This document shows positions 6,149 through 60,944 of a stretch of DNA of 64,000 nt, one piece after another. A program made the translations under genes and the position numbers. This stretch comes from Octopus vulgaris (lineage: Eukaryota), in contig OX597823.1 of assembly GCA_951406725.2 (NCBI GenBank), positions 8,432,001 through 8,496,000 on the forward strand, read 5' to 3'. The notes under the pieces were generated by a model. That model did not search any database. It was given only the letters and a program-made list of their open reading frames with translations, and was not told the origin of the DNA. The stretch's first letter is position 1. Each line of letters starts with the position of its first letter.

Positions 6149-6184
6149 CAGTTGAAAAAGTCTCAATGACTGAAACCGGTACTG
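6149..6184 (+). ncRNA. Minimal type I hammerhead ribozyme, U3-A8 core variant (Penelope-type pLTR remnant)
   Basis: CAG-UUGAAAA-AGUC(UCAAU)GACU-GAAA-CCG-GUA^CUG. Stem I is CAG/CUG, stem II is AGUC/GACU, stem III is the palindrome ACCGGU, and the cleavage triplet is GUA. A short tail then runs into (TA)n. Confidence 0.65.
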
Positions 6185-7011
6185 AAATGTTTTTTATAAA
6201 ATTAGTTAGCATTTTCTATCTTGACTTTTTTCCATATATATATATATATATATATATATATATATATATATATATATATATATATATATATATTTATATG
6301 TATATATACACACACATAGACGCGCGCACATACGCGCACACACACACACACACACACACAAACACACACACATATATATATATATATATAGAGAGAGAGA
6401 GTGAAAGAGAGAGAGACACACACACACACATGTGCATATATATACAAAATGACATTGGACACAAATGATAAGAGCACATATACATAAACGAAGCGAACGA
6501 AAAAATAAGCAATAGCTTCCCCAGACATTTTTGTTGCATCGATGCCTAGAAACACATTTACCTTACTGACGTTAACGATCATGCGAATGTGTCCCTTGGA
6601 CATTGATAATGGGGAGATGATAAGTAAAAGCCAAGAAGAATATATAGTTAATTCTTACTAACTGGCACATAAAACATAAAGACGCGAACGAAAATATTGT
6701 GAAGAATTAGAGTCTGTCAGGAAGTGAAAGACATTAGTTTTTGATAGTAAAAATAAAAGAAAAGAAGACGAGACTACAATGCAGCAGGTACGGTGCCAAA
6801 AACGGATAGCGAGGAAAATAGTGGTTAGACTTAGTTTCTGAAGGAACAGCGAAGAGATGCAAGTTTGGGCCGTTCTCTAGGTAAATTAAACCGAGAAAAA
6901 TCTTAAGGTTACAAAACTGCCTAACATAGCAACATCTAAGAAAACATGTGTGTATTTAGATATATGTTTCAGATAGGTAGATATAATAAATAACATATTG
7001 GTTTAAATATT

Positions 7012-7202
7012 TGGCACAAGGCCAGCAGTTTTGGGGAATGGGAAGTCAATTATATAGTGTTCAACTGGTACTTATATTGTCGATCCCGGAAAGATGAAAT
7101 GCAAAGTCAACCTTGACGGAATTTGAAATCAAAATGTAAAGACAAGACGAAATGATGCTTCACATATTGCCCGCCGTGTTAACGATTCTGCAAATTCGTC
7201 CG
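7012..7202 (-). mobile_element. SINE family A, degenerate copy
   Basis: Reverse-complement similarity to 10766-10997. Confidence 0.75.
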
Positions 7203-7370
7203 ACTCTTCACGCATATAAATATATATATATATATATATATATATATACATACATATATATATATATATATTTATATTTACATACATATATATATATACA
7301 TATACATATGTATATATATATATATATATATATATATATATATATATATATATATATATATATATATATA

Positions 7371-7601
7371 CTTTATTCAAAGCAGCAGAAAATTCAACAA
7401 AACCTGTTACTCTGAGCTCCCGTTGCCGTTCGTCGGACAGTTTTTGCTAGAAAAAAAACTGTCCGACGAACGGCAACGGGAAAACTCAGAGTAACAGGTT
7501 TTGTTGAATTTTCTGCTGCTTTGAATAAAGCATATTACTCTACCACTGGTATTTGAGTACTCTTTTTTCCACCTTGTTTCACATTTATGTGTTTACTCCG
7601 G
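7371..7601 (+). mobile_element. Penelope-type foldback (inverted pLTR) non-autonomous element inside (TA)n
   Basis: Inverted arms at about 7371-7445 and 7454-7530 plus a 70-bp unpaired tail, with (TA)n on both flanks. Contains a hammerhead-like motif. Confidence 0.7.
7455..7502 (+). ncRNA. Hammerhead-like motif (CCGACGA core, slightly degenerate)
   Basis: AAAACUGU-CCGACGA-ACG(GCAA)CGG-GAAAA-CUCAGA-GUA^ACAG(G)UUUU. Stem I is CUGU/ACAG, stem II is GNRA-capped, and stem III is the near-palindrome ACUC-A-GAGU. Confidence 0.55.
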
Positions 7602-7755
7602 TATATATATATATATATATATATATATATATATATATATATATATATATACACATATATATATATGTATATATGTATTTGTATATATATATATATATAT
7701 ATATATATATATATGTATATATGTATGTATATATATATGTATGTATGTACGTACG

Positions 7756-8027
7756 GTGAAGGCGCATGGCTCTGAGGACCGGACTGCATGTTGAGTTCTT
7801 GAGCAAGAACTTTACTTCATGTTGTTCTAGTTCACTTCAGCTGTAGAAATGAGTTGCGACATCACTAGTGCAAAGTAGTATCAGCCTTTGCCTTTCCCTT
7901 GGATAACATTGGTAGAGTGGAGAGAGTAGCTGGTCTTCCATAAAAGCTTTACCCTAACTTGTGCCTCGGAGGGCAACGTTTTAGGTGCAATCTCATGGTC
8001 ATTCATGACCGACGGGTGTCTTTACCC
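7756..8027 (+). mobile_element. SINE family D, degenerate copy
   Basis: Shares GAAGGCGCATGGCTC..GAGTTGCGACATCACT..GGTCATTCATGACCGA blocks with 40921-41237 and 53331-53660. Confidence 0.7.
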
Positions 8028-57755: not shown

Positions 57756-58050
57756 ATACCAATATTTGGAGGGGCACTCGGAGCACTAACAACCAGGTTC
57801 GAGAAATATTCCAGACAAATTGGAATTAACATGACGGCGGAGCAGACTCAAAAATATTACTCTGTTGCGAACACCTAGGATTTTGAGATTGGTGCCTGGG
57901 TGCTGAGTATCTTCCACGGTAAGTTAACATTCAGCTACTAAAGCTTATAATTTGCGGAATGAAACCTTGTGAGACCTCTGATAACATGTCGATGTCCGGT
58001 GTCGCATAATAAACCAGAGCAAGTAAGACCTAGAGATCTGTGAAGTAAAA
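57756..58050 (+). mobile_element. R4/Dong-clade 3' fragment no. 2
   Basis: IPIFGGALGALTTRFEKY..TPRILRLV..* plus 3'UTR, between TAA and TAG repeats. Confidence 0.7.
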
Positions 58051-58122
58051 TATTAGTAGTAGTAGTTGCAGCAGCAACTGTAGTGGTAGTAGTAGTAGTA
58101 ATAATGATAATGATAATAATAA

Positions 58123-58332
58123 TGACTCAATCTAAAAAAAAACATCTGAAAACTTTAAAAATACCCTACAATCTAGGTGTATTGCAAAAGTCGGTATTAC
58201 TTGGAACTGCACGCATATTGCATAAAGTACTGTCTGTCTGAGATCCTTGTTGTGACTTGGCAATCAGTACTAACCCCGATAGATACCATATCTTCAATCA
58301 ATCTCACGATATTGTATATTATGTGACGTCTA
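58123..58332 (+). mobile_element. R4/Dong-clade 3' fragment no. 3
   Basis: HLKTLKIPYNLGVLQKSVLLGTARILHKVLSV* plus 3'UTR, then (TAA)n. Confidence 0.75.
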
Positions 58333-58649
58333 TAATAATAGTAATAATAATAATGGTCGGGACGTCGACGACTAAACCAGCAGCCCCGCAGAGCTTGCTC
58401 TGTGAGGAGGGTGTAGGATTCTTGCTATTTTGACACCCTACAGAATGAAAAACAAGACCTGTATAAAGGCTAATGAACTCTAACGAGGCAACGGCCGCGA
58501 AAATAGCATATACCTAAGAGGCGGAAGTAAACGATTGAATGATTCTTATATCTTAGGGTGGTGATCCTGTCAGTGATGGTGTCACGGGGAGAAAAAAAGA
58601 GAAAAAGATACTGGTATTTGTCTAACCTAAAACTCACTAACCCTCATCA

Positions 58650-60080
58650 TGAGTGCTGACATGTCAAATAGAAATAGAAATGAGAACGGCGTGAATGAGG
58701 CTGGAATAACTTGTGATGGTCTCCCGCCCGGCGGGTGCTCCACGGGTGAGCAGCGTGGGCCCAATCGTCATTAAGTAACTGCTAAATGAAGGTGAACGAA
58801 TGAAATGAATGTGGCTGTAATGGAGTGCTACTTTCTGGGTAATCCCAGAACTAATAATGAAATACCCTCTAGGAGATATAGGAAAAGAATGCACAGGACA
58901 TGGAGCAACAGAGACCTATTTGAATTAAGTGAAGAAAATTTGTGTGACCAAGGTAGAGCCATCAGAAAAAATGAATGGTTATCTCCAGTTAAACTAGAAA
59001 GTATTTAGAGACAGGTGCTTAGGGATAGTAAGGCCAGCGCTGAACGGAAGGATGTGAAAGATAATGCAGATGGTGAAACTATGGCAGTAGAGTTGAAGTA
59101 AGAAAACAAGCATGAGGCTGAGATTATTTATCAGGAAAGCGATGAGAGAACAGAGGAACAGATATCCCTTTTAAATGAAATCATTGATGTTTGGACCGCT
59201 GGTGAACAGAGCTTTTATACGGAGTTTAAAAAAGTAGACAGAAAGAAACTCAATGAATGGGTCAGGAAGATAAATGATATCACTGGTGATATCAGGACTG
59301 ACAACATCACTGACACCAACAATCTGATAAATGCAATCTCGATCTTTATAACTCGGATGTTAGGTCTGAAAGCCAAGGATAAAGGAGAATAACGCAGTCT
59401 ATTAACGAGACCAGAAAACATTAATATTCTGGGACAGAAAAAAAGAAATGAAGCTCAGAGAACTATGCTGAGCTAGAGAGGAAGTATAGGGTAAAGAGAA
59501 AAGGAATCAACGTTGTGATTGAGGAACTAAAACAGAGTTTGAAAGCTAAAGCACATAAACTAAAGAGATATGAACAGAGAATTGAGCATTACAGATTAAA
59601 TAGACGTTTCGAACAAAATCAGAAACAAGTTTGTCAGAAACTGGATAGGAAAGAAAAAGGAGAAAAGGCCGTGCCGGACGCTGAAGAAAGCAAAAGATTT
59701 TGTGCAAACATATGGTCTCAGAGACAACACGAAACTGAAGAGGAGTGGCAAAAGACATTCAAAGAGGAGAGTGGAGAGTATCAGCAGGAGGATTTGGGAA
59801 TAACTGAGGAGATGATTAAAGAACAGTGCAGGAGAATTCCTAACTGGAAAGCACCTGGCCCAGATGGTGTTCAGGGCTTTTGGTTTAAAAACTTGATAGT
59901 TCTGCACAGGAGAATTAAGAGACAGCTGGACGAAATACTGAGTAGTGATATCCAAGTACCGGCCTGGATGACAAAAGGAAGAACGGTGTTATGCCAGAAG
60001 TACCCAAGTAAAGGAAATGTGGTTGGAAATTTCCGACCAATATCTTATTTGTCACTGATGTGGAAACTGATAACGACCCT
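58650..60080 (+). mobile_element. R4/Dong-clade element, 5' half (N-terminal domain to RT start), 3'-truncated
   Basis: VMECYF..YRKRMHRTW..SEENLCDQGRAIRKNEWLS, then IEELKQSLKAKAHKLKRYEQR..NRRFEQNQK..PNWKAPGPDGVQGFWFK..WMTKGRTVLCQK..NFRPISYLSLMWKLIT. Confidence 0.88.
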
Positions 60081-60636
60081 GTAAGGATGAAAGGCAAATC
60101 TGACCTCGTCATGATTTGAGCTCCATAGAAACAGACAACTAAACCACAGTTACAAAAAATAGGGTACCCTCCATCCTATATCTCATAACAAACAGAATAA
60201 CACGCGTCAAAACAAACCAAACCGGCATTTCATTGAGGGAAATTTCACTAAATCAATAGATACAATAAGTACACTTCATTGAATAAACAAACGAAGAAGA
60301 ATCAGCGCAAACACTTTCCCAAGCGACAAGCGAATAAATAGCTATATTAAAGGATAAACATATTTTCTCCTATTAATTGTTCATTAAAATGTTCATTGTT
60401 CTCTTTTCTTGTATATCTTTTGTGATACAGTTTGTTTTTGTGCTGACATTTTCGTCACGTGTGTCCTTTTACTTGTTCCAATATTTGAAGTGTATCCATC
60501 TAGGGGCACTACCTTAAGTAATTTCAAACGGTTATATCGACTTCCATTTTTATTTAAAGTGTGCTGCCTGATCAGACATCGGATTATTATGCTGAACCGC
60601 TGGCTTAAAGAGGGAGGCATAAACAAACCAAAATCT

Positions 60637-60944
60637 ACATTATTTACATTATTTACATTCGACGGATATTTGTCCTCATTTTGCTTGTTGTTAACACAAC
60701 GTTTCGGCTGATATACCCTGCAGCCTTCATCGGGTGTCTTGAGGGAAATTTCGAACCTGGGTTCTCATTCCTAAGTCATACCTTAGGAATGAGAACACAG
60801 GTTCGAAATTTTCCCCAAGACACCTGATGAAGGCTGGATGATACATCAGCCGAAGCATTGTGTTAACAACGAACAAAATGAGGACAAATATCCGTCGAAT
60901 GTAAATAATGTACATAATTCCTCATCTCTTAAATATAGAACTGT
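60637..60944 (+). mobile_element. Penelope-type foldback element with a 12-bp TSD and a hammerhead motif in each arm
   Basis: Arms at 60645-60775 and 60782-60912. TSD AAACCAAAATCT at 60625-60636 and 60945-60956. Confidence 0.9.
60693..60738 (-). ncRNA. Minimal type I hammerhead ribozyme (mirror copy at 60819-60864 on +)
   Basis: GACAC-CCGAUGA-A-GGCUG(10 nt)CAGCC-GAAA-C-GUU^GUGUU. The + copy has CUGAUGA but a mutated GAAGCAUU. Confidence 0.7.

Follow-up and report, generated by a model that had tools for sequence, protein, structure and literature searches.

Short hammerhead-bearing inserts in Octopus vulgaris DNA as probable truncated 3′ ends of diverse Penelope-like retrotransposons

The DNA analyzed in this study is a 64,000-nt stretch of the Octopus vulgaris genome (assembly GCA_951406725.2, contig OX597823.1, positions 8,432,001 to 8,496,000 of the forward strand), referred to below as the window and numbered from its first base. 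It contains seven short inserts which, as judged from their core letters, stems and palindromes, carry minimal type I hammerhead ribozyme motifs of the type found in Penelope-like elements (PLEs), and for which self-cleavage is predicted. Together the inserts occupy approximately 1760 bases, i.e. 2.75% of the window (the 5′ bounds of two solo inserts are approximate), with a density of about one per 9 kb. All counts given below refer to this single window, which was selected since it seemed rich in such motifs. Outside the motif the seven inserts are mutually dissimilar (local alignment scores of 12-31, compared with self-scores of 268-632). The original prediction, made from the nucleotide sequence alone, of several dissimilar short elements from unrelated families that share one hammerhead architecture and occur about once per 10 kb is therefore upheld by the seven inserts, by the excess of their motifs over shuffled sequences and decoy cores, and by the insertion signature described below.

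Three of the inserts are not paired. The first (6149..6233, + strand) is a solo PLE-type 3′ end with a predicted hammerhead at 6149-6184, comprising an intact U3-A8 core (6152-6158), a 4-bp stem II and a 6-nt palindrome, with predicted cleavage after 6181; a (TA)n run adjoins its 3′ end, 52 nt downstream, and its 5′ boundary is undefined. The second solo 3′ end (8451..8640, - strand) contains a hammerhead at 8576-8543, whose core at 8573 had been read as a standard NNGANNA heptamer; it is better parsed as CUGUAGA (an A6U lesion), followed by an unpaired A, a 4-bp stem II and a minimal stem III. Cleavage is predicted after 8546, (TA)n adjoins the 3′ end 95 nt downstream, and the 5′ boundary is approximate. 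The third insert (34232..34547, - strand) has (TA)n on both sides and an intact C3-G8 core at 34486, with a 62-nt extended stem II, an 8-nt palindrome, a bulged stem I and predicted cleavage after 34406 (fold z = -2.93).

The remaining four inserts are head-to-head pairs. That at 7371..7601 lies in (TA)n and has one atypical motif per arm (cores 7463+ and 7436-), with a U4C change in both arms, a 2-bp stem II closed by a GNRA loop and an odd palindrome of 9 nt; a tail of about 71 nt is present only in the right arm. The strict descriptors failed to detect this motif, which is nevertheless a probable hammerhead. The pair at 38874..39189 is bordered by an 11-bp target site duplication (TSD; 38863/39190). 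The U3-A8 hammerhead of its plus arm (39060-39096) is intact, with cleavage predicted after 39093; the minus arm breaks off within loop II and is the only one with a tail (57 nt). The pair at 50488..50750, also in (TA)n, consists of a plus arm (50534-50750) and an inverted arm (50488-50533). The plus arm has a 36-nt tail and a U3-A8 hammerhead at 50625-50669 with the core at 50631 and a G5A lesion, and is thus a full motif rather than the half motif reported earlier at 50654. The last pair (60637..60944), with a 12-bp TSD (60625/60945), contains a C3-G8 hammerhead in each arm and a tail of about 33 nt only in the right one. Its lesions are U4C in core 60733- and, in core 60824+, A15.1G and a broken palindrome. 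The site damaged in one arm is intact in the other, which suggests that the template was intact and that the arms later decayed neutrally.

Across the seven inserts, the U3-A8 core occurs in three. All core letters are intact in only three motifs, i.e. 6152 and 39063 (both U3-A8) and 34486 (C3-G8), and a palindromic stem III is present in every motif except those of the 60824 and 7436 arms, which have decayed. A further head-to-head pair between (TA)n runs, whose arms are 84% alike, was observed at 34616-35188. In its minus arm a CUGAAGA core is accompanied, at 34749, by a hairpin resembling stem II but by no GAAA box, and its plus arm lacks that stretch; this pair is possibly an eighth, more decayed PLE end.

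The frequency of the motifs was assessed with two descriptors, both fixed after the candidates had been seen, and the decoy-core control described below is the best guard in this respect. Our own descriptor specified a CUGANGA or UUGANAA core with at most one core mismatch, a stem I of at least 3 bp, a stem II of at least 4 bp, GAAA, a palindromic stem III and UH. It gave six matches (6152+, 8573-, 39063+, 45337-, 50631+ and 60733-), compared with a mean of 0.55 and a maximum of 2 in 60 local dinucleotide shuffles, and none in the reversed window. The second was the RNAmotif descriptor that Cervera and de la Pena 2014 (PMC4209133) provide as supplementary material. In unaltered form it yielded no C3-G8 match and one U3-A8 match (39063), a number reached by 2 of 100 shuffles. 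With its stem and loop limits, but with both cores, one mismatch and longer palindromes allowed, it gave five matches, while 100 shuffles averaged 0.42 (maximum 2) and none of them reached five; 150 permuted decoy cores applied to the real window averaged 0.46, also with a maximum of 2. The type I hammerhead search with core variants, run in the window against dinucleotide shuffles, thus placed the motif frequency above background.

When lesions were counted over the whole motif, the window contained two motifs with none, four with one and five with two, and the corresponding averages in 25 shuffles were 0, 0.36 and 4.4. The signal is firm up to one lesion (6 vs. 0.36) and absent at two. Since the two-lesion class lies at the shuffle level, the two degenerate motifs proposed earlier at 21467 and 22475 (21464..22556, + strand; cores near 21470 and 22477, beside TA-rich duplications) are not confirmable and are indistinguishable from chance. 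The match at 45337-, whose stem I consists solely of G-U pairs and at which no insertion hallmark was seen, is probably the expected chance match; it was discarded, together with 17101+, 14626+ and 1966+, as being at background level. The Rfam hammerhead families gave no match at E ≤ 10 in 60600-60960 and 34330-34545, and window-wide no hammerhead appeared among the best 150 of 244 Rfam rows, which were microsatellite and hairpin noise. MAFFT did not align the seven motifs by structure.

A second line of evidence is provided by the insertion signature. Five of the seven inserts end at a (TA)n run located 52, 87, 95, 108 or 174 nt beyond the predicted cleavage site (compared with 11% for random positions), and the other two are flanked by the TSDs mentioned above; this matches the (TA)n sites or 11-12 bp TSDs noted in the original prediction, whose foldbacks were also confirmed in four cases. 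Within the four head-to-head pairs the extra 33, 36, 57 or 71 nt are confined to one arm, and these one-sided tails make the foldbacks asymmetric, unlike terminal inverted repeats. Published PLE insertions show an adjacent inverted 5′-truncated copy and an optional tail of 30-40 bp (PMC8557442; PMC3846280; PMC11167929). Frangieh et al. 2024 identified the tail with the interval between two reverse-transcription start sites (PMC11167929). The inserts resemble the truncated insertions of endonuclease-containing (EN+) PLEs (Neptune, Penelope/Poseidon and Nematis; PMC8557442, PMC3846280, PMC11167929) in (i) the 5′ truncation, (ii) the adjacent inverted copy, (iii) the optional tail at one end, (iv) the TSDs of 8-12 bp and (v) the AT-rich or (TA)n targets. 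They differ in the greater length of two of the tails and in that no parent open reading frame (ORF) is linked to the seven families.

The main arm of the pair at 50488..50750 was also compared, at ≥80%, with four public contig sets bearing four organism labels (942, 1405, 354 and 140 contigs per run). In the three runs covering the site, G is present at G5 in 99.9, 99.4 and 99.4% of the depth, and the G5A lesion at 50631 is private to this copy. The sub-family variants listed at ≥3% of depth include five that fall within the 45-nt motif: one located in loop II, one changing a U-G pair to U-A, one changing U-A to U-G, and two replacing A17 with C or U. At position 17 the share of C is 12-59% and that of U 0-40%, and G is not listed; according to the NUH rule, no G occurs at this position. 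The other core letters and the palindrome letters have no listed variant. All five variants are compatible with the motif, and they are one-sided changes, with no two-sided compensatory pair seen among them. Of the 135 possible substitutions, 37 would by our count be compatible (21 of 45 if only transitions are considered), so that five of five corresponds to a rough probability of 0.002 to 0.02, which serves as a guide only because depth-weighted variants from related runs are involved. For this family, then, the consensus keeps the core and the stems.

The same comparison was informative about the ends of the family. (TA)n follows 50714 in 18, 28 and 12 contigs, and 50748 in 2 contigs (the fourth run); the family therefore ends in two ways, with and without the tail. 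Upstream of 50534, listed contigs continue for 47 and 79 letters, which means that the 5′ end of the window copy is a truncation. Judged by contig counts the family is abundant across all four organism labels, summed depth not being equivalent to copy number.

The window also contains protein-coding relics of PLEs. A broken ORF at 53751..54245 (- strand) encodes a linker with a cysteine motif and a GIY-YIG endonuclease, as indicated by its HMMER relatives and their Pfam matches. A full HMMER search found 413 relatives at E ≤ 0.001; a GIY-YIG Pfam match (E ≤ 0.01) was present in all 10 tested, and the two longest also contained RVT_1 upstream. The position of the cysteine motif before the nuclease suggests a C-terminal layout of the Neptune or Nematis type (PMC8557442). 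With a profile of 150 PLE-type proteins, the relic at 53.8-54.2 kb was the sole match in the window, and a word-indexed protein search with it retrieved nothing among longer proteins. A possible second relic of a cysteine linker (22926..23063, + strand) has a CxxCxCxxC motif and is cut off by a (TATC)n run. It is weak, with tblastn E values of 0.002-0.006 to one of the 150 PLE-type proteins. Neither relic peptide itself has a Pfam match. Hence, of the two Penelope ORF relics in the original prediction, that at 53820 stands as a PLE-type GIY-YIG region, and that at 22905 is only weakly indicated. Since the relics are not attached to any hammerhead, we infer the tie of the seven families to autonomous parents.

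On these grounds, the seven inserts are likely decayed, 5′-truncated 3′ ends (pseudo-long terminal repeats, pLTRs) of at least seven PLE families. Several results weigh against this interpretation. No hammerhead was found adjoining the ORF at 53751..54245, and in the profile search with the 150 proteins no hammerhead of the window was contiguous with a PLE reading frame. The tails of 57 and 71 nt exceed the published 30-40 bp. The comparison with other copies covers one of the seven families, that of 50631, and in it two loose-end consensus rows (X6, 5 contigs; X13, 1 contig) have no intact core. Finally, for five of the eight motifs folded, the predicted dimer is not a double hammerhead.

According to an alternative explanation, which we consider unlikely, some of the families are true non-autonomous units, i.e. 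pLTR derivatives resembling short interspersed elements (SINEs) or retrozyme monomers, with their own transcription start and with the PLE protein supplied in trans. All seven inserts lack an attached ORF, the 50631 family is very abundant, and in two pairs (7371-7601 and 60637-60944) both arms start nearly alike, just upstream of the motif. Moreover, non-autonomous PLE derivatives such as MRC1 are known (PMC8557442), and retrozymes are related to pLTRs. The anatomy of the inserts nevertheless speaks against such units: no tandem array with an element-size unit overlaps any of the seven, their motifs are of the minimal PLE type and not of the canonical retrozyme type, and their 5′ ends vary both among and within inserts, the 50631 contigs continuing, as described above, beyond the 5′ end of the window copy. 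Variable 5′ ends, an inverted 5′ copy and an optional one-sided tail are features of ordinary 5′-truncated PLE copies, and the distinct non-autonomous, retrozyme-like fleet envisaged in the original prediction was not borne out.

It is very improbable that AT-rich DNA full of hairpins produced the motifs by chance, or that they arose as by-products of foldback DNA elements resembling miniature inverted-repeat transposable elements (MITEs). One descriptor was relaxed once the candidates had been seen, most of the copies are lesioned, Rfam revealed no hammerhead and the exact published descriptor matched once; this reading does suit 45337, 21467 and 22475. For the seven inserts it is largely refuted by the excess of motifs with at most one lesion, by the decoy cores (at most 2 matches) and by the 50631 family, which restores G5 and has A, C or U at position 17, while the asymmetry of the foldbacks and their one-sided tails do not fit MITE-like elements. 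In a related search, a 20-base pattern of the 60824 family matched four loci in metagenome contigs over 23-25 bases; no PLE protein was present and these loci were rejected as chance matches. Pattern searches of viral and prokaryote collections gave no matches. Equally hard to credit is the idea that the host has retained the dispersed ribozymes because they serve it, in trimming transcripts or producing circular RNA. Although their density is high and the family compared is common to four organism labels, most motif copies in the window are damaged in the core or a stem, and in one insert the two arms have decayed independently, as expected of neutral relics.

If the inserts are taken as truncated PLE ends, the most likely mechanism may be drawn from published PLE biology. 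The GIY-YIG endonuclease of a parent element would nick AT-rich or (TA)n DNA, and target-primed reverse transcription would start a short distance downstream of the hammerhead, at either of two neighbouring sites, which would yield tail-bearing and tail-less ends. Reverse transcription would usually proceed for only 100-300 nt, and a second copy in inverted orientation would often be added. Under this proposal the hammerhead is present in most short inserts because it lies only about 50-170 nt from the start site. In the tandem transcript of the parent, two motifs may pair through their palindromic stem III and cleave slowly, or with the help of the PLE protein, thus releasing unit-length RNA, whereas the dispersed single copies would be mostly dead and decay neutrally. 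In the predicted minimum-energy fold, the homodimers of 50631 and 34486 adopt the double-hammerhead form in full, and that of 6152 in part. With the Schistosoma motif, no cleavage was observed for the monomer and weak cleavage for the dimer (PMC4209133). Cleavage of an anole element is protein-assisted and dispensable for insertion (PMC11167929). The PLE hammerhead is thus weakly active in vitro and needs the PLE protein, and no RNA ends were found at its site (PMC11167929; PMC4209133).

One junction may bear on this point. The inverted arm 50488-50533 starts exactly at the base after position 17 (50664), the predicted cleavage site of the main arm. For four foldbacks with arms of about 50-150 nt, we estimate the chance of one such exact start at roughly 4-8%. 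We raise, as a doubtful suggestion, that the ribozyme cleaves in vivo and that the 3′ cleavage product serves as template for some PLE cDNAs, leaving a footprint in the genome. Among the 24 of 190 rows shown in the contig comparison, no pile-up of loose ends was present at 50664, and the junction of 50488-50750 itself was not recovered as a joint, contigs being a poor tool for this purpose. If the suggestion were true, the exact start of inverted arms would be set by the scissile bond, as seen at 50533/50664. Short head-to-head PLE ends as numerous as these, and belonging to so many families, form a large natural sample of 5′ junctions, and the counting of such junctions would provide the first in vivo evidence for cleavage by the minimal PLE hammerhead, and for the step at which it occurs.

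The window is also rich in microsatellites (13% masked). At 51097-51648, a dispersed repeat that occurs up to 9 times in the window is arranged as three tandem copies of 184 bp; it resembles the 3′ part of a tRNA-derived SINE. A MITE-like element at 47800-48210 has perfect terminal inverted repeats of 29 bp, an 8-bp TSD and four telomere-type hexamer repeats. A GC-rich foldback element lies amid AT-rich DNA at 46811-47170, and was ranked top in the Rfam search only as a generic hairpin, far below the family cut-off. The region 16263-16858 is a minisatellite with a 16-bp unit (37 copies, 90% alike). Two relics of long interspersed elements (LINEs) were found: one at 59102-60084 (+ strand), with the N-terminal region of a reverse transcriptase (59452-60081 has its best match in Octopus bimaculoides, with 63% identity), and one at 42382-42699 (- strand), resembling a restriction-like endonuclease end. 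Both presumably belong to the Dong/R4 group. Fragments at 31132-32430 (+ strand) resemble a gag-pol relic of a long terminal repeat (LTR) retrotransposon, with a weak zinc-knuckle match (E 0.014). Two diverged inverted-repeat pairs (8145-9271 and 23907-24784; 80% and 75% alike, about 0.5-0.9 kb apart) are probably old DNA-transposon ends.

The seven inserts may be compared with two described groups of hammerhead-bearing sequences. According to Cervera and de la Pena 2014 (PMC4209133), heterogeneous solo minimal hammerhead ribozymes (min-HHRs) number in the thousands per genome and are 'probably related to truncated PLEs'; opposite-strand motif pairs 100-700 bp apart were described as well. Shared with these are the short stem I, the CUGANGA or UUGANAA core, the palindromic minimal stem III, the unpaired base after A9 (in several copies), the many dissimilar families, and the predominance of solo motifs with some opposite-strand pairs. 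The U3-A8 core, in which the C3-G8 pair has covaried, is known from Schistosoma PLEs (PMC4209133); it is present here in the three families noted above, and one family has the 62-nt stem II. No cephalopod is included among the 56 motifs of Fig. S3 of Cervera and de la Pena 2014. Published counts, such as the 9,000 for Xenopus tropicalis, correspond to a far lower density than that of the window; they were obtained with the strict descriptor that gives one match here.

The second group, the non-LTR retrozymes (PMC7229834; bioRxiv 10.64898/2026.07.22.740005), are likewise short, non-coding, related to PLEs and equipped with type I hammerheads. By definition, their units are 150-450 bp long, contain canonical type I motifs and are repeated in tandem (PMC7229834). 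In contrast to their head-to-tail arrays, mostly canonical hammerheads and abundant circular RNAs, the inserts described here are single or head-to-head and their motifs are minimal. The text of bioRxiv 10.64898/2026.07.22.740005 names only insects and a coral among invertebrates, and its species table may include a cephalopod. We found no paper on PLE hammerheads in octopus in a literature search that left out subscription journals and repeat databases. The work of Lunse et al. may already cover such variants, possibly with molluscan hosts.

In the curated repeat annotation of Octopus vulgaris, PLEs account for 6.83% of the genome (191 Mb, 190 families), and ribozymes are not mentioned in the main text of that paper. 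The statement that inserts of this kind would be missed by annotation holds for protein-only annotation; the seven families may well already be present in curated libraries. Given this PLE content, one short PLE end per 9 kb is within the expected range. If the window is typical, a genome of 2.8 Gb would contain on the order of 100,000 such ends, as extrapolated from one selected window. Rfam counts, e.g. 235 Hammerhead_1 in the giant squid, probably understate the ribozyme content of cephalopods widely. The inserts would extend the known association between hammerhead ribozymes and PLEs to one more animal group.

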